Shown here: in pieces, positions 2,909-6,495 of the stretch
How the letters are laid out: every line of letters begins with the position of its first letter
How positions within the stretch are numbered: position 1 is the stretch's first letter
DNA from: a virus
Taxonomy: Duplodnaviria; Heunggongvirae; Uroviricota; Caudoviricetes
IMG/VR virus record: IMGVR_UViG_2711768010_000010
Strand: one strand, 5' to 3'
Length of the DNA: 6,495 nucleotides
Notes under the pieces: generated by a model
The model's database searches: none
Seen by the model: only the letters and a program-made list of their open reading frames with translations
What the model was told of the DNA's origin: nothing
Translations under genes and position numbers: made by a program

Positions 2909-3289
2909 ATGACCGAGCGCATAGAATTTGTTTTACCTTACCCGCCGACGGTGAACACTTACTGGCGTCGTCGTGGCAGCACATATTTTGTATCAAAAGC
3001 CGGGGAGCGTTATCGCCGGGCAGTGGCGCTTATTGTTCGCCAGCAGCGGCTGAAATTAAGCCTGTCCGGAAGGTTGGCAATAAAAATTATTGCAGAACCA
3101 CCGGATAAGCGCCGCCGTGACCTGGACAATATTCTGAAAGCGCCGCTGGATGCGCTGACGCATGCGGGGTTGCTAATGGACGATGAGCAGTTTGATGAAA
3201 TCAATATCGTTCGTGCTCAGCCAGTATCTGGTGGACGTCTGGGGGTGAAGATTTATCCCATAATGCTTGAAGGGCAGGTCAAAAAATGA
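2909..3289 (+). CDS. rusA: RusA-family Holliday junction resolvase, 126 aa
   Basis: Conserved RusA pattern: LPYPPTVNTYWRRRG near the N-terminus and PDKRRRDLDNILKAPLDALTHAG (E. coli RusA has [23 protein letters not shown]). ATG 2909 directly follows the upstream TAA. Stop overlaps the Q start (ATGA at 3286). Confidence 0.9.
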   Translation: MTERIEFVLPYPPTVNTYWRRRGSTYFVSKAGERYRRAVALIVRQQRLKLSLSGRLAIKIIAEPPDKRRRDLDNILKAPLDALTHAGLLMDDEQFDEINIVRAQPVSGGRLGVKIYPIMLEGQVKK

Positions 3290-4107
3290 AACTGGAAGAT
3301 TTACCGAAATACTACTCCCCAAAATCCCCCGGCCTGACTGATGCATCGGCCTCAACGTCGAAAGATGCGCTGAGTATCACTGATGTGATGGCCGCGCAGG
3401 GCATGACACAGAATCGGGCTGAGATGGGGGTTTCTGCGTTCCTTGGGAAAATGGGCATTAGTATGAATGACAGAGAGCGGGCAACAGAATTGCTGACAGA
3501 ATATGCACTCAGTCGGTGTGATCGCGTGGCGGCGTTAAGAAAACTCCCGGCAGAAATAAAACCGGCAGTGATGCGTATTATGGCTTCGTATGCGTTTGAA
3601 GATTATGCCCGTAGCGCGGCGAGCAAAAAACAGTGCCCCTGCTGTCACGGAAAAAAATTTATTGAAAGCGAGGTTTTTACAAACAAGATCCAGTATCCGG
3701 ATGGTAAGCCGCCGGTATGGGCAAAGTGTACGAAAGGTGTGTATCCGTCTTACTGGGAAGAATGGAAAAAAGTCAGGGAGGTGGTAAAAGTTGCCTGTCC
3801 GGAGTGTGGCGGAAAGGGTGAGGTTTCCACCGCCTGTAAGGATTGCCGTGGGCGTGGTGTCGCCATTCATCGTGAAGAGTCGGTAAAACGTGGTATGCCT
3901 GTTATCAGAGACTGCCAGCGTTGTGGTGGTCGTGGCTATGAAAGACTACCATCAACGGAGGCATTTAATGCTATATGCGAGGTGACAAACCAGATAACAC
4001 GCGCGTCATGGGAAAAAACAGTTAAGAAATTTTATGATGCGCTGGTGACCCGGTTTGATATTGAAGAAGCATGGGCTGAGCGGCAGTTAAAAAAGGTAAC
4101 TAGGTAA
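3286..4107 (+). CDS. Late-gene antiterminator Q (long, Cys-rich QuuQ-type), 273 aa
   Basis: Sits immediately upstream of a lambda-pR'-like promoter, pause element and tR'. Carries repeated CxxCxGxG zinc-finger motifs (CPECGGKG, CKDCRGRG, CQRCGGRG) plus CPCCHGKK. Family assignment not database-checked. Confidence 0.7.
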   Translation: MKLEDLPKYYSPKSPGLTDASASTSKDALSITDVMAAQGMTQNRAEMGVSAFLGKMGISMNDRERATELLTEYALSRCDRVAALRKLPAEIKPAVMRIMASYAFEDYARSAASKKQCPCCHGKKFIESEVFTNKIQYPDGKPPVWAKCTKGVYPSYWEEWKKVREVVKVACPECGGKGEVSTACKDCRGRGVAIHREESVKRGMPVIRDCQRCGGRGYERLPSTEAFNAICEVTNQITRASWEKTVKKFYDALVTRFDIEEAWAERQLKKVTR

Positions 4108-4111
4108 CAAG

Positions 4112-4140
4112 GTTGATTTTTCCGGAATCTGTGGTAAATT
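4112..4140 (+). promoter_or_regulatory. Late promoter pR'-like with extended -10, followed by sigma-dependent pause element
   Basis: TTGATT (4113..4118) and TGgTAAATT (4132..4140). AACGATGGG sits 6 nt after the -10 (4147..4155), the same spacing as lambda pR' (TAAATT-6nt-AACGATGGG). Confidence 0.7.
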
Positions 4141-4187
4141 CGTTATAACGATGGGCGTTTTATGCCTGACGTTAGAAGAGTTTCTAC

Positions 4188-4211
4188 AACCCGCCGCCGA
4201 GCGGGTTTTTT
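4188..4211 (+). terminator. tR'-like rho-independent terminator
   Basis: AACCCGC-CGCCGA-GCGGGTT hairpin followed by TTTTTT, about 65 nt after the predicted pR' start. Confidence 0.7.
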
Positions 4212-4331
4212 ATGACTGAAATCGCGTCAGTACAGTAAACGCGCTGGTGGCGGTGAATACCTGTCTTTCAGCTTGCTGGCTTTTTCGACAAGAGTTATTG
4301 GTGTGTCACGTTAACCGGAAAAGGAAAAGAC

Positions 4332-4529
4332 ATGCTAAAACAGCAGGATATGACAGAAACCGCCAGAGTGGTGTTTAATGAATTAAGCGTTACCGAACCG
4401 GCGACAGTCGGGGAGATAGCGCAGAATACTTACCTTTCACGCGAACGCTGCCAGTTAATACTGACCCAGCTGGTTATGGCGGGTCTGGCAGACTATCAGT
4501 TCGGTTGTTACAGACGCCTTCCGCAGTGA
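4332..4529 (+). CDS. Small winged-helix/HTH-like protein, 65 aa
   Basis: AAGGA 6 nt before ATG 4332. HTH-like segment TVGEIAQNTYLSRERCQLILTQLVMAGL. Its 3' end is embedded in a terminator hairpin. Confidence 0.5.
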   Translation: MLKQQDMTETARVVFNELSVTEPATVGEIAQNTYLSRERCQLILTQLVMAGLADYQFGCYRRLPQ

Positions 4530-4539
4530 AGGCTTTTTT
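4516..4539 (+). terminator. Rho-independent terminator after the small wHTH ORF
   Basis: GCCTTC-CGCAGT-GAAGGC hairpin (stop codon TGA 4527..4529 lies in the loop/stem) followed by TTTTTT. Confidence 0.65.
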
Positions 4540-4542
4540 ATT

Positions 4543-4553
4543 TGTGGTAAATG
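4543..4553 (+). promoter_or_regulatory. Candidate extended -10 promoter element upstream of the methyltransferase
   Basis: TGTGGTAAAT at 4543..4552 is identical to the pR' extended -10 core at 4130..4139. No clear -35. Confidence 0.3.
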
Positions 4554-4556
4554 GGC

Positions 4557-4587
4557 GGCTGGTGGGTGTTAGGGGCACCCACCAGCC
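4557..4587 (+). promoter_or_regulatory. Perfect 12-bp palindrome (GGCTGGTGGGTG-7nt-CACCCACCAGCC): operator or RNA hairpin
   Basis: Arms 4557..4568 and 4576..4587 are exact reverse complements. No T-tract follows, so not a canonical intrinsic terminator. Lies between the candidate promoter and the methyltransferase start. Confidence 0.5.
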
Positions 4588-4679
4588 ATCTGCTCATGCG
4601 TTGGGTTCACAAGCAAACCTCAGGCCCACTGCTTTGCGCAAAAGCAGAATGAGCCTATCAGAGACAGGCTTAATGATCC

Positions 4680-5738
4680 ATGCTTAATACTGTAAAAATA
4701 TCCAGTTGTGAGTTAATCAACGCCGACTGCCTGGAATTTATCCGGTCGTTACCCGAAAATTCTGTTGACCTGATAGTCACGGACCCGCCGTACTTTAAAG
4801 TGAAGCCTGAGGGCTGGGATAACCAGTGGAAGGGCGACGATGATTACCTGAAGTGGCTGGACCAGTGTCTGGCGCAGTTCTGGCGGGTGCTGAAACCTGC
4901 CGGAAGTCTTTACCTGTTCTGTGGTCATCGCCTGGCATCTGATATCGAAATCATGATGCGTGAACGCTTCAGTGTGCTGAACCATATTATCTGGGCGAAG
5001 CCGTCCGGACGCTGGAACGGATGCAACAAGGAAAGCCTGCGGGCGTATTTCCCCGCCACAGAGCGCATTCTGTTCGCGGAACATTATCAGGGGCCGTATC
5101 GTCCGAAAGATGCCGGGTATGCGGCGAAGGGCAGTGCACTGAAACAGCATGTGATGGCCCCGCTGATTTCTTACTTTCGTGATGCGCGAGCTGCCCTGGG
5201 GATAACGGCAAAACAGATTGCAGATGCCACAGGAAAGAAAAACATGGTGTCGCACTGGTTCAGTGCCGGTCAGTGGCAGTTGCCGAATGAAAGCGATTAT
5301 CTGAAATTACAGGCGCTGTTTGCCCGGGTGGCAGAAGAGAAGCATCGGCGTGGTGAACTGGAAAAGCTCCACCACCAGCTGGTGGATACGTATACCTCAC
5401 TGAACCGGCAGTATGCGGAGCTGCTGAGTGAATATAAACATCTGCGGCGGTATTTTGGCGTGACGGTGCAGGTGCCGTATACCGATGTGTGGACGCATAA
5501 ACCGGTGCAGTTCTATCCCGGGAAACATCCGTGCGAAAAACCGGCAGAAATGCTGCAGCAGATAATCAGCGCTAGCAGTCGTCCGGGTGACCTGATTGCA
5601 GATTTTTTCATGGGGTTGGGTTCGACAGTGAAAGCGGCACTGGCGCTCGGGCGTCGTGCAATTGGCGTTGAGCTGGAGACTGAACGTTTTGAGCAGACGG
5701 TTCGGGAAGTACAGGATTTAGTCAGCCAGAACGGATGA
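4680..5738 (+). CDS. Orphan DNA methyltransferase, amino-MTase (N6-adenine or N4-cytosine), beta-class motif order, 352 aa
   Basis: Motif IV DPPY near the N-terminus (LIVTDPPYF) and motif I FxGxGS near the C-terminus (DFFMGLGST), separated by a roughly 200-aa insert. No restriction endonuclease candidate in the window. Confidence 0.85.
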   Translation: MLNTVKISSCELINADCLEFIRSLPENSVDLIVTDPPYFKVKPEGWDNQWKGDDDYLKWLDQCLAQFWRVLKPAGSLYLFCGHRLASDIEIMMRERFSVLNHIIWAKPSGRWNGCNKESLRAYFPATERILFAEHYQGPYRPKDAGYAAKGSALKQHVMAPLISYFRDARAALGITAKQIADATGKKNMVSHWFSAGQWQLPNESDYLKLQALFARVAEEKHRRGELEKLHHQLVDTYTSLNRQYAELLSEYKHLRRYFGVTVQVPYTDVWTHKPVQFYPGKHPCEKPAEMLQQIISASSRPGDLIADFFMGLGSTVKAALALGRRAIGVELETERFEQTVREVQDLVSQNG

Positions 5739-5778: not shown

Positions 5779-5854
5779 GGCCCTTTAGCTCAGTGGTGAG
5801 AGCGAGCGACTCATAATCGCCAGGTCGCTGGTTCAAATCCCCGATGGCGGTCCA
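5779..5854 (+). tRNA. tRNA-Ile2(CAU)-like (ileX/ileZ-like); 3' end does not fold canonically, possibly defective
   Basis: Acceptor 5' strand GGCCCTT, D-arm GCTC-AGTGGTGA-GAGC and anticodon loop CTCATAA (anticodon CAT) match recalled E. coli ileX almost base for base. After the T-loop (TTCAAAT) the sequence CCCCGATGGCGGTCCA pairs with neither the T-stem 5' strand GCTGG nor the acceptor strand. Confidence 0.5.
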
Positions 5855-5867
5855 TTATCTGCATCAT

Positions 5868-5944
5868 GCGTTGTTAGCTCAGCCGGACAGAGCAATTGCC
5901 TTCTAAGCAATCGGTCACTGGTTCGAATCCAGTACAACGCGCCA
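5868..5944 (+). tRNA. tRNA-Arg(UCU), phage-type (argO-like)
   Basis: Full cloverleaf folded by hand: acceptor GCGTTGT/ACAACGC, D-stem GCTC/GAGC, anticodon stem ATTGC/GCAAT with loop CTTCTAA (anticodon TCT), T-arm ACTGG-TTCGAAT-CCAGT, discriminator G, encoded CCA. Differs from the recalled chromosomal argU sequence. Confidence 0.9.
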
Positions 5945-5958
5945 CACTTATTTTCCCT

Positions 5959-5984
5959 GGCTCGCTTTTGCGGGCCTTTTTTTT
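5959..5984 (+). terminator. Rho-independent terminator after the tRNA cassette
   Basis: GGCTCGC-TTTT-GCGGGCC hairpin (one G.U pair) followed by 8 T residues. Confidence 0.75.
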
Positions 5985-6181
5985 AAATGTCTCACAATTC
6001 AGACGGTTGACAGTTGTCTGTTTTGCGGGGAGTTTGTTAAAAGAAACTGGCATGGTGAATCCCCCTGTGCGGAGGGGCAATCAGCGAGTAGGTATATGGG
6101 ATAATCGCGGATTCAGGTGCTGGTACTGAATTCACCGGGAGGCACCCGGCATCATGCAATGGCACATAGCGCCACTCTCCA

Positions 6182-6204
6182 GCCCTCTCCGGAGGGGCTT
6201 TTCT
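6182..6204 (+). terminator. Terminator-like hairpin with U-rich tail in the non-coding region
   Basis: GCCCT-CTCCGGA-GGGGC followed by TTTTCT. Short stem, so weak evidence. CGGAGGGGC also occurs at 6070..6078. Confidence 0.3.
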
Positions 6205-6388
6205 GTGCCGGATACATCACAGTTTCTGGAACCTTAGGTACTACAGTATCAGTCAGGGTGCTATATTTTCAGATGTGATGAAAGCCTGTCAGCAGGCAGG
6301 GCGTATCGGAAATGACCCAGTAGAGAAAACGTTGACTCAGATACCGGTGCTGAGTTACCGGGAAACCGGCATCACATGACCGCTATCC

Positions 6389-6495
6389 TGAGGTGTACTG
6401 GCAATAGCGGACACTACCATTTGTTCTTTTTTTAAGCAGCCATCTGATGATATTTTTCCCTGAAGGCTGCCGGGGAGATATTCCCCAGACGAGAG
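6389..6495. repeat. Right copy of the perfect 107-bp terminal inverted repeat (IR-R)
   Basis: Exact reverse complement of 1..107. Carries an inverted copy of the ORF 76..306 start; on the minus strand this gives only a 21-codon remnant (6355..6420). Confidence 0.95.

Follow-up and report, generated by a model that had tools for sequence, protein, structure and literature searches.

Small regulatory RNAs (sRNAs) of the STnc100 class have been described as moron-type cargo of lambdoid prophages, at a site flanked on one side by the Q/pR'-tRNA block and on the other by lysis genes (Tree et al. 2014, PMC4104026). In EDL933, 11 STnc100 copies were found to have RNA-seq reads, and one of them was confirmed by northern blotting (PMC5331693). 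Functional work on individual members has also been reported. For example, EcOnc27 was shown to be crosslinked to Hfq and to be destabilised without hfq (PMC4104026 supplement), and overexpression of sRNA103 raised espA and fimZ (PMC7873438, PMC5030294). Likewise, the sRNAs PasD1 and PasD2 depend on Hfq, have targets identified by RIL-seq and carry their seed in the linker (PMC8550237), and a shared ancestor has been proposed for PasD and STnc100 (bioRxiv 10.64898/2026.05.13.724894). AsxR and AgvB are the moron-site partners of STnc100-type sRNAs in so-called "dyads" (PMC4104026, PMC7873438). Finally, variation at sRNA relatives lying directly downstream of stx2 has been statistically linked to clinical outcome (PMC12711010).

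The window analysed here is a 6,495-nt stretch of Caudoviricetes DNA (IMG/VR record IMGVR_UViG_2711768010_000010). Within it, positions 5985-6388 had been singled out in a preliminary description as about 400 bp of structured non-coding DNA, possibly a deletion scar or the source of a small regulatory RNA. These 400 bp are made up of one complete STnc100-family sRNA gene (unit 1) and the 5' part of another, diverged copy (unit 2), which an IS600 element truncates. The reading favoured here, with a probability of about 0.8, places a short array of STnc100-family prophage sRNA genes at the moron site that separates the Q/pR'-tRNA block from the lysis genes. As such, the feature is already known and ordinary, an Rfam family at its usual place together with an IS600 breakpoint, and a previously unexplained structured stretch can now be annotated as an STnc100 sRNA module plus an IS600 end. 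What novelty there is appears modest: unit 2 is an unannotated paralogue, and STnc100 genes often occur in tandem arrays whose linkers differ.

The identity of unit 1 is clear. A covariance-model search with Rfam/Infernal, as the preliminary description had proposed, returned a match far beyond chance to RF02076 (STnc100) on the plus strand at 6021-6210, with a score of 123.6 bits (E 1.3e-27; Rfam gathering score for this family, 47 bits) that extends untruncated over model positions 1-206 of 206. The gene itself, as delimited by the Rfam match, covariation and a terminator scan, occupies 6050-6207. Its predicted end at about 6204 agrees with the position of the family terminator and with the transcript end suggested earlier. 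Specifically, an 8-bp closing helix, P1 (6050-6057 with 6150-6157), surrounds hairpins P2 (CCCCT-GTGCGG-AGGGG, 6062-6077), P4 (6109-6133, including ATTCAG-9 nt-CTGAAT at 6111-6131) and P5 (CCGGG-AGGCA-CCCGG, 6135-6149), and the scaffold so closed contains UGGUGAAUCCCCCUGUGCGGAGGGGC and CACCGGGAGGCACCCGGCA, two blocks that are invariant. A 23-nt variable linker, AAUGGCACAUAGCGCCACUCUCC (6158-6180), which is the putative seed, leads into the terminator hairpin (6181-6199) and the downstream tract TTTCTGTG / UUUUCUGUG. All of the hairpins listed in the preliminary description are helices of the STnc100 family. The one at 6062-6077 lies exactly where it had been placed, and the next two are real but were each placed one base off, at 6110-6130 and 6136-6150, respectively. 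The terminator-like hairpin was likewise recovered, and the repeated motif, CGGAGGGGC, occurs at 6070-6078 in an arm of the second hairpin and again at 6190-6198 in an arm of the terminator, so that these two arms can pair with each other. The suggestion of a small regulatory RNA is therefore well founded, since the hairpins, terminator and repeated motif together make up an STnc100-family scaffold and its terminator. Two stretches of the window, 6052-6071 and 6123-6142, are exact matches to published qPCR primers for STnc100.

Conservation of the hairpins among homologous prophages, without which the earlier proposal was to be abandoned, was found together with compensatory changes. When 117 distinct homologous units were aligned with MAFFT without regard to structure, 86.8% of cells were paired, versus 37-51% with slid partners, and the observed covariation score was reached in none of 500 shuffles. 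Both-sided, compensatory changes affect 5 of the 8 pairs of P1 and all 8 of P4 (13/16 together), and P5 is invariant in this set as a consequence of the search pattern used. Sequence conservation exceeds 90% at 6053-6060 and 6133-6154 versus 25-55% at 6158-6181, linkers are unlike even between units of one array, and a hairpin with a T-run follows within 85 nt of the scaffold in 145 of 178 units. Single-sequence folding was uninformative as support for unit 1; the minimum free energy structure (-57.2 kcal/mol, z -0.38) differs from the family fold (-46.6 kcal/mol). Unit 1 shares its helices, conserved blocks, terminator and prophage context with the RF02076 consensus, from which the window allele differs by a G-U pair in the closing helix, a 1-nt terminator deletion and a variable region shorter by 11+3 nt. 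The G-U pair and the deletion also set it apart from the intact locus L001, and because of the deletion the window terminator is the weaker of the two (-10.2 versus -17.3 kcal/mol). Its U-tract is short and interrupted.

Comparison with the described relatives shows which features are shared and which are not. EcOnc27/sRNA103, located downstream of stx2B in O157 Sp5/933W-type phages, belongs to the family of unit 1 and agrees with it in strand and in position with respect to tRNAs and lysis genes. In Sakai Sp5, the STnc100 match (207.7 bits) lies 75 nt after stx2B and is followed by a convergent AsxR, and the EcOnc27 northern probe maps to the linker of this copy. The window, in contrast, has neither an upstream stx nor a convergent AsxR, and its linker is unlike that of Sp5; a BLAST comparison with the Sp5 intergenic region aligned only 5988-6078 and 6128-6158. 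PasD1 and PasD2 (EPEC E2348/69; EcOnc13 in Sakai) have the same architecture and share their 5' 39 nt with the window (GCAUGGUGAAUCC..., 78.6% identity), but beyond nt 1-39 there is no BLAST alignment, and the PasD seed, UGUGAG, is absent from the window. Because the window linker differs from those of EcOnc27 and PasD, no target can be transferred from either. A closer counterpart is the copy downstream of stx2 in LC645409; in linker and terminator, the two sequences differ only by the 1-nt deletion in the terminator stem of the window. In view of this match, Stx-negative prophages are a reservoir of the same regulator that lies downstream of stx2 in LC645409. AsxR and AgvB (RF02703 and RF02702) occupy the same moron site but are 51-60 nt long, on the opposite strand and unrelated in sequence. 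Neither gave an Rfam match in the window at E<=1 (AsxR positive control in Sakai, 88.1 bits), and their conserved 3' 24 nt, allowing up to 6 substitutions, were absent from both strands of the window, L001, L002 (LC645409), L003 and L070. A convergent anti-sRNA on the minus strand, as in Sp5, was thus considered and not found in the window.

Upstream of unit 1, a conserved stretch on the plus strand (5988-6049; homology to Sp5 starts at 5988) probably contains the promoter. It includes the perfect TTGACA at 6007-6012 noted in the preliminary description, TTGTCT at 6014-6019 and an extended -10-like element, TGtTAAAAG, at 6035-6043. A family logo anchored on GGTGAAT displays -10-like A and T positions and a Y-R start, and the RNA-seq 5' ends of PasD1/2, when aligned, fall on window position 6050. 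By analogy, unit 1 would start near G6050. The TTGACA is conserved in Sp5 and in unit 3 of L001, and its single occurrence alone is not significant. Since it lies 25 nt from TAAAAG, the best -10-like element, it is probably not the -35 of that promoter, and at a 17-nt spacing only GAGTTT is found. The 5' end of unit 1 is ambiguous, as PasD starts at GCAUGG while the northern size of EcOnc27 (~235/247 nt) implies a start some 65-75 nt upstream of GCAUGG. On the opposite strand, a promoter-like match is present at 6292-6265, with no terminator downstream.

A mode of action may be proposed by analogy with the characterised relatives. Transcription from the promoter-like extended -10 would yield a structured 5' scaffold, in which the closing helix surrounds three hairpins, followed by the linker and a Rho-independent terminator. 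The resulting RNA may be produced in the lysogen and would be bound and stabilised by Hfq, with the linker just upstream of the terminator pairing in trans with host or phage mRNAs. Such an arrangement would amount to a division of labour, the scaffold providing stability and protein binding and the linker target specificity. A discrete, Hfq-associated sRNA is known for homologues, from RNA-seq and northern blotting in EDL933, Hfq-CRAC for EcOnc27 and RIL-seq for PasD, and by analogy the window allele may behave likewise.

Between the two units lies a spacer (6208-6258) that is identical in L001 and less conserved in L003. It has no recognisable feature, neither an Rfam match nor an AsxR/AgvB-like element being present on either strand. 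The adjoining sequence, 6249-6388, is best read from its alignment to the family as a further STnc100-like unit, diverged and represented by its 5' three quarters; this second half of the region is a diverged sRNA unit and not merely further hairpins. A near-consensus extended -10, TGcTATATT (6259-6267; putative TGCTATATT promoter), occupies the position homologous to the -10 of unit 1 and is invariant in the window, L001 and L003. It precedes a scaffold (6272-6388, plus strand) that consists of a perfect 8-bp closing helix, AUGUGAUG with CAUCACAU (6273-6280 with 6370-6377), and hairpins at 6285-6300, 6333-6357 and 6358-6369. The linker, ACCGCUAUCCUUCC, begins at 6378 and breaks off behind ...ACCGCUAUCC at 6388, so that the window retains the promoter-like element and closed scaffold (6259-6377) and has no terminator; the complete architecture is found at L001 7266-7439. 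Against RF02076, the window copy of unit 2 scores 21.8 bits, the intact L001 copy 30.1 bits (E 1.8e-4) and the intact L003 copy 30.0 bits. All fall below the gathering score, making unit 2 a structural relative and not a family member by Rfam's criterion. It was detected by the covariance model alone, nhmmer with a scaffold profile leaving it unseen. Identification as PasD or another named RNA was considered and rejected; BLAST aligned only the shared scaffold start, and no other Rfam family matched. A scan of viral contigs with 15-mers gave mostly chance matches, and across 240 loci only two real sequence variants of unit 2 were recognised. These two differ by compensatory changes in the 6285-6300 hairpin, a covariation that rests on this single pair of variants, and by one uncompensated U to C substitution in the closing helix of L003. 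Unit 2 is a diverged paralogue with a near-consensus extended -10 of its own that has lost its terminator to IS600.

In intact loci, three tandem STnc100-type units score 136, 30 and 161 bits, and arrays of 2-5 same-strand units are seen among intact loci; the third unit of such loci would lie past IS600 in the present genome. Strains with the intact form of the locus, at 98.4-98.8% identity, include E. coli ATCC 11775, S88, NU14 and CE10. Gene order in L001 and L003 runs from a DNA methylase through tRNAs and the sRNA units to DUF1737, holin and lysozyme. The available literature excerpts that mention STnc100 describe no such arrays, and related Pas sRNA copies have been described as distal, not tandem. 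The arrangement resembles that of OmrA/OmrB and PrrF1/PrrF2, in which paralogous sRNA genes are adjacent, on the same strand and each equipped with its own promoter and terminator. Those pairs, however, belong to core genomes and have conserved seeds, whereas STnc100 arrays are prophage-borne, with a conserved scaffold and a varying linker.

With regard to its surroundings, unit 1 lies in a lambdoid prophage between the late regulator region and the lysis genes, RusA, Q, a methylase and tRNAs being present upstream in the window and the lysis genes following in the homologous intact loci. The left boundary of the sRNA module is the intrinsic terminator of the tRNA cluster (5959-5984, plus strand), identified by the terminator scan as GGCTCGC-TTTT-GCGGGCC followed by T8. 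The suggestion that this is where Stx phages carry stx proved exact. In Sakai Sp5 and the Stx2a phage LC645409, homology extends through tRNA-Arg and the terminator to 5985 and resumes at 5988, and between these two breakpoints lies the stx2AB cassette of ~1.33 kb.

This coincidence gives some appeal to the idea that the 400 bp are what remained after loss of stx or another moron, as do an 82-nt deletion that fuses two tRNAs in the adjoining cluster and the rearrangement of the locus by IS600. A deletion scar is nevertheless very improbable. Just 2 nt (5986-5987) separate the homology blocks, no stx-derived sequence is present, and the same clean stx-less junction, together with units 1 and 2, occurs at ~98.8% identity in 672 of 5426 complete E. 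coli genomes. Moreover, sRNA units of a kind also found downstream of stx in Stx phages explain the whole of the sequence. This evidence concerns the nature of the 400 bp and does not decide the ancestral state of the empty site. Nor is the region properly regarded as a place missing its cargo, as the preliminary description had implied, since the sRNA genes it contains are what has been described there as moron-type cargo (PMC4104026). An origin as one or more small protein genes is less credible still. Hypothetical proteins have been annotated at L001 7056-7181 (as a pseudogene) and at L003 4920-5075 and 5234-5401, several STnc100 copies of EDL933 show Ribo-seq coverage values >1, and the SD-like tatgggata listed for one EDL933 entry (PMC5331693) also occurs at window 6095-6103. 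The five ORFs (34-77 aa) overlapping the region, however, had no Pfam match at E<=1, the longest same-strand ORF within it (53 aa, 6117-6278) is frameshifted in the 98.4%-identical L001, and the family varies by arbitrary-length indels and compensatory base-pair changes, not by codon-like substitution. The earlier view that no credible ORF is present was therefore sound. Unlikely, but of more substance, is the proposal that the RNA is for the most part processed from upstream transcripts, or acts in cis within them (as a 3'-UTR-derived sRNA or stabilising 3' structure), the candidates being tRNA or stx read-through and the Q-antiterminated late transcript. The module does lie on the late-transcript strand directly behind a terminator or stop codon, its -35 is weak, with TTGACA misplaced relative to the best -10, and the length of the EcOnc27 RNA exceeds the distance from GCAUGG to the terminator in Sp5, placing its 5' end near the module start, just past the stx2B stop. 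Against this stand the PasD1/2 5' ends at GCAUGG, the presence of the -10-like element and Y-R start family-wide, including in internal array units with a terminator immediately upstream, and the near-consensus extended -10 at the homologous place in unit 2. In addition, uninduced EDL933 expresses STnc100 copies (PMC5331693), and an RpoD ChIP-exo signal has been reported at the STnc100 promoters of Salmonella LT2 (PMC10794520).

That unit 2 is an sRNA pseudogene, a duplicate that has decayed and lost its function even in loci where it is intact, leaving 6211-6388 as effectively spacer, is doubtful but deserves serious consideration. Its best score of 30 bits is well under the gathering score of 47, the invariant blocks of the family are altered (GGUGAAUCCCCC to GAUGAAAGCC and CACCGGGAGGCACCCGGCA to ACCGGGAAACCGGCA), and the small number of variants points the same way. 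The intact unit 2, on the other hand, retains its extended -10, an 8-bp closing helix with three hairpins and, beyond the scaffold, a linker that is single-stranded and a terminator that is strong, and L001:7289-7441 folds alone into the family architecture (z -2.72). Between L001 and L003, identity is 91% for unit 2 and ~77% for unit 1, and PasD1 and PasD2, although validated as sRNAs, likewise fall short of the gathering threshold (37.7 and 41.4 bits). A tentative alternative, put at not quite even odds, is that STnc100 genes are modular sRNA cassettes, each a scaffold with a swappable linker and terminator, that form moron-site arrays of 2-5 units in which the middle unit is functional and unannotated. 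Were this the case, one prophage would deliver several regulators with different specificities, and annotation pipelines would miss the middle unit because of its sub-threshold Rfam score. The middle unit is intact in ~12% of complete E. coli genomes. Together with the tandem arrays, this sub-threshold unit suggests that the family is larger and more modular than current annotation indicates.

The right-hand limit of the array in the window is set by an insertion sequence. Positions 6389-6495 (minus strand) are the right (IRR) end of an IS600 element of the IS3 family, including the 3' end of orfB, and form a perfect 107-nt inverted repeat of positions 1-107, where a second copy of the same end lies on the plus strand (orfB C-terminus ...SPAAFREKYHQMAA and stop, with IRR ending ...CACCTCA at 107). 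Both have the terminal TG...CA and are 100% identical to E. coli sequences annotated as "IS3-like element IS600 family transposase". The IR-R of the preliminary description is thus a real inverted repeat, though not a prophage structure; it is the IS600 end that truncates unit 2. The insertion at 6388/6389 cuts this unit within its linker and removes the terminator, and in this genome IS600 has inactivated unit 2 or at least taken its terminator and distal linker. The locus is a natural example of an IS element parting an sRNA scaffold from its terminator. The right junction was present in 0 of 5426 complete E. coli genomes, a junction scan of one-genome-per-species contigs gave no match, and the left junction was not found elsewhere. 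As a guess, the abundance of IS600 would point to Shigella or a related E. coli lineage. An origin of the 107-nt repeat as an assembly hairpin or invertible segment was considered and rejected, as the orfB-proximal IS600 end forms each of the arms and the right junction recurs independently. Specifically, the IMG/VR contig L070 has the same right junction followed by a full IS600, with orfA and orfB, from 3087 to ~4350.

Positions 5985-6388 carry a member of an already known small RNA (sRNA) family at a known location, and what is specific to this locus is a diverged second unit together with the IS600 insertion that truncates it. In a scan against Rfam 15, the STnc100 model (RF02076; gathering score, 47 bits) matched the plus strand at 6021-6210 with 123.6 bits and an E-value of 1.3e-27, covering model positions 1-206, and published STnc100 qPCR primers have exact matches at 6052-6071 and 6123-6142. 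The preliminary description had proposed either a small regulatory RNA or a deletion scar, and the former reading is borne out by this match and by compensatory pair changes in homologues. Specifically, the hairpins it listed are P2, P4, P5 and the terminator of the family model; that at 6062-6077 is present as described, two others exist but lie one base away from where they had been placed (6111-6131 and 6135-6149), and the terminator-like hairpin occupies 6181-6199, with TTTCTGTG. An 8-bp closing helix, P1 (6050-6057 with 6150-6157), surrounds P2, P4 and P5. The region was also rightly said to lack a credible ORF: the overlapping ORFs (34-77 aa) have no Pfam match, and one of 53 aa (6117-6278) has a frameshift in the E. 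coli ATCC 11775 prophage L001.

Comparative evidence for the fold comes from IMG/VR contigs picked by the unit's invariant 19-mer, which is found across many genera of Enterobacterales. In a MAFFT alignment of 117 distinct sequences, built without structure information, the family structure left 86.8% of cells paired, versus 76.1% in shuffles and 37-51% when partners were slid by 1-3 columns, and the observed covariation score was reached by none of 500 shuffles. Changes on both sides were seen at five of the eight pairs of P1 and all eight of P4, while the invariance of P5 in this alignment results from how the sequence set was collected. By this pair count the hairpins are kept across homologous prophages, a point on which the preliminary description had made its reading depend. 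Single-sequence folding of unit 1 (6050-6207) was not informative (minimum free energy, -57.2 kcal/mol; z, -0.38; family fold, -46.6 kcal/mol). The repeated motif noted earlier, CGGAGGGGC at 6070-6078 and 6190-6198, is common to the 3' arms of P2 and the terminator, and the minimum-energy fold therefore pairs the 3' arm of P2 with the 5' arm of the terminator, replacing two local hairpins. Units with other terminators retain P2; the alternative pairing is therefore not a feature of the whole family and could be a coincidence. Relative to L001, the window allele has a G-U pair in P1 and a 1-nt deletion in the terminator stem (-10.2 versus -17.3 kcal/mol).

The location is that of stx2. Homology with Sp5, the stx2 prophage of O157 Sakai, and with the Stx2a phage LC645409 spans tRNA-Arg and its terminator up to 5985 and restarts at 5988; the intervening insert of about 1.33 kb in both consists of the stx2 promoter, stx2A, stx2B and 41 nt, so the earlier argument that this is a site of stx cargo was right. 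The deletion-scar reading of these 400 bp, on the other hand, is contradicted by the clean junction, by the presence of the stx-less arrangement, over 80% or more of 5985-6388, in 672 of the 5426 complete E. coli genomes, and by the sequence itself, an sRNA module also present 3' of stx. In LC645409, the unit that follows stx2 has a linker and terminator identical to the window's (AAUGGCACAUAGCGCCACUCUCC..., then the hairpin), except for the window's 1-nt stem deletion, whereas the linker in Sp5 differs.

A second, weak STnc100 match in the window (6249-6437; 21.8 bits) is explained by two uninterrupted loci, L001 and L003 (phage vB_EcoS-640R1), each of which has three tandem same-strand units after the tRNAs. 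Units 1, 2 and 3 score 136.3, 30.1 and 161.0 bits on RF02076 in L001, and 138.0, 30.0 and 132.5 bits in L003; unit 2 of L001 has an E-value of 1.8e-4 in a 1-kb search. In window coordinates, unit 2 comprises an extended -10 that is invariant and close to consensus (TGCTATATT, 6259-6267), a closing helix of 8 bp without mismatch (6273-6280 with 6370-6377), three hairpins (6285-6300, 6333-6357 and 6358-6369) and a single-stranded linker, ACCGCUAUCCUUCC; in the intact loci a strong terminator follows, which is missing from the window. The intact unit (L001:7289-7441) alone folds into exactly this architecture of closing helix, three hairpins, linker and terminator (-54.9 kcal/mol; z, -2.72). Comparative support is thin because only two variants are known (100% and 90.9% identical); between them, hairpin 6285-6300 shows C-G to U-A, U-A to U-G and U-G to C-G changes, and the closing helix has one uncompensated change. 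In the window, unit 2 ends at 6388 after ...ACCGCUAUCC, within the linker and ahead of the terminator. After the third unit, L001 also carries, at 7715-7803 on the minus strand, an element with a strong terminator (GCCCGCG...CGCGGGCTTTTTTT) convergent on unit 3; it has just a weak OmrA-B-like match (25 bits) and could represent the convergent partner in the "dyad" of Tree et al.

The truncation is due to IS600. Positions 1-107 recur at 6389-6495 as a perfect inverted copy, so that the right inverted repeat of the preliminary description is real as a repeat, but it is an IS600 end and not a prophage structure. These sequences match copies that carry the annotation IS3-like IS600 family transposase and occur at up to 43 places per genome and on plasmids too, and translation of 2-64 gives the C-terminus of orfB (...SPAAFREKYHQMAA, then stop). 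The window thus has the same, orfB-proximal (IRR) end of IS600 at its two extremities, each facing the 6281-bp prophage segment, so that two IS600 copies, tail to tail, flank 6.3 kb of prophage. On the plus strand, TCC is the triplet next to the IS at either side. The 6388/6389 junction was spanned in none of the 5426 complete E. coli genomes and was absent from the species-representative genomes searched, and the left junction was not found outside the window. The right junction is carried by an IMG/VR contig, L070, with 98.8% identity over 5980-6495, a full IS600 (orfA and orfB) after the junction, and DNA further on that is not collinear. The insertion is thus real, and the IS has taken part in further rearrangement.

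Relatives of the unit have been characterised in pathogenic E. coli. In EDL933, RNA-seq reads map to 11 STnc100 copies, and northern blotting confirmed one of them (PMC5331693). In O157 Sakai, a copy scoring 207.7 bits lies 75 nt 3' of stx2B; this is EcOnc27, which is crosslinked to Hfq and destabilised without hfq (PMC4104026 supplement). EcOnc27 is also sRNA103 of Gruber and Sperandio; when overexpressed, this RNA raises transcript levels of espA and fimZ, probably by an indirect route (PMC7873438, PMC5030294). Tree et al. (PMC4104026) reported that at least eight Sakai prophages have sRNA genes in the moron site downstream of pR'. Likewise, PasD1 and PasD2 of EPEC are Hfq-dependent, with targets known from RIL-seq and a seed at the same linker position (PMC8550237), and a common ancestor of PasD and STnc100 has been proposed (bioRxiv 10.64898/2026.05.13.724894). 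In strain E2348/69, these two experimentally validated sRNAs, PasD1 (L004, 1931-2136) and PasD2 (L005, 2128-2332), fall short of the RF02076 gathering score, at 37.7 and 41.4 bits; annotation at that threshold therefore misses real STnc100 relatives.

Unit 1 is probably transcribed from a promoter immediately upstream. The TTGACA noted earlier is present at 6007-6012, separated by 25 nt from the -10-like element; Sp5 and unit 3 of L001 keep it too, there as one arm of a small hairpin. With sequences anchored on GGTGAAT, the family logo shows A at -13, T at -9 and, at -3/-2, a pyrimidine followed by a purine, and E. coli-type units carry TGTTAAAAR, which would set the start at the G of GCAUGG (6050). 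Alternatively, the RNA 5' end may arise by processing of upstream read-through or from a second start: the size reported for EcOnc27, about 235/247 nt (PMC4104026 supplement), would put its beginning near the start of the conserved module and not at GCAUGG, leaving room for either, but the start predicted from TGTTAAAAR coincides with the PasD RNA-seq 5' end. Regardless of the 5' end, conservation above 90% in scaffold blocks versus 25-55% in 6158-6181, linkers that differ among units of one array, and a hairpin with T-run no more than 85 nt from the scaffold in 145 of 178 units suggest that the RNA would bind Hfq and pair in trans through its linker. This pattern fits a scaffold that is conserved and a segment that can be exchanged and sets specificity; it is in this variable segment, between closing helix and terminator, that the seed of PasD and the probe site of EcOnc27 lie.

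Tandem arrays, mostly outside the window, may be the only new part of this analysis. Counting same-strand Rfam STnc100 matches above the gathering score in viral contigs and in Pantoea, four units were found in L015 (2265-3380, minus strand) and in a Pantoea plasmid, L286 (894-2010, minus strand), and three each in L024 (342-1038) and L037 (1702-2340). L074 has five, four in a row at 4349-5513 with an isrI match inside and the fifth about 3 kb further, and a Pantoea contig, L317, has four, three of them closely spaced at 6350-7047 (minus strand) and one outside that span. Units are spaced by about 250-480 nt, with unlike linkers, and at least two exact-core copies on one strand occur in 15 of the first 120 viral loci, usually 253 or 484 nt apart. 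The examined passages of the family literature that mention STnc100 describe no array, and PasA and PasD copies have been described as distal, not tandem (bioRxiv 10.64898/2026.05.13.724894).

Judged from its ORFs and RNA matches, the window is the late-regulatory part of a lambdoid prophage, with sok and mok/hok (947-1272), a DUF968-type ORF (1850-2908), RusA (2909-3289), antiterminator Q (3286-4107), a DNA methyltransferase (4680-5738) and tRNAs (5782-5847 and 5868-5944). Among the complete genomes examined, L001 is the closest relative (98.4% identity between its 6855-7406 and window 5838-6389); it keeps the gene order and continues with a DUF1737 pseudogene, holin, YdfR, lysozyme and terminase genes. 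In the type I toxin-antitoxin locus, sok RNA (RF01794, 112.4 bits; 947-1122) is overlapped by a 70-aa mok/hok-type ORF (1060-1272). Directly after hok lies an isrK-like element ending in a terminator (1281-1362), found at the same place in L001 (2350-2431) and L003 (1771-1852); the three copies score 25.8-27.8 bits against a gathering score of 50. Directly 3' of Q, at 4108-4214, a promoter-like stretch precedes a terminator, CCCGCCGCCGAGCGGGTTTTTT, as expected of the short pR'/tR' leader, which occupies the place of lambda 6S RNA and StxS; the sole RNA-family match there was a weak and spurious one to Trp-leader. A perfect inverted repeat of 12 bp, with 7 nt in the loop (GGCTGGTGGGTG...CACCCACCAGCC, 4557-4587), lies 3' of a 65-aa ORF (4332-4529); a weak P26 match there is on the minus strand. 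Finally, 5782-5847 is a chimeric tRNA (Rfam tRNA, 33.7 bits; no ARAGORN call): compared with the ileZ-argN-argO cluster of L001 and Sakai, 82 nt are deleted, which fuses the 5' part of tRNA-Ile (CAU), within the T-arm, with the 3' end of the first tRNA-Arg.
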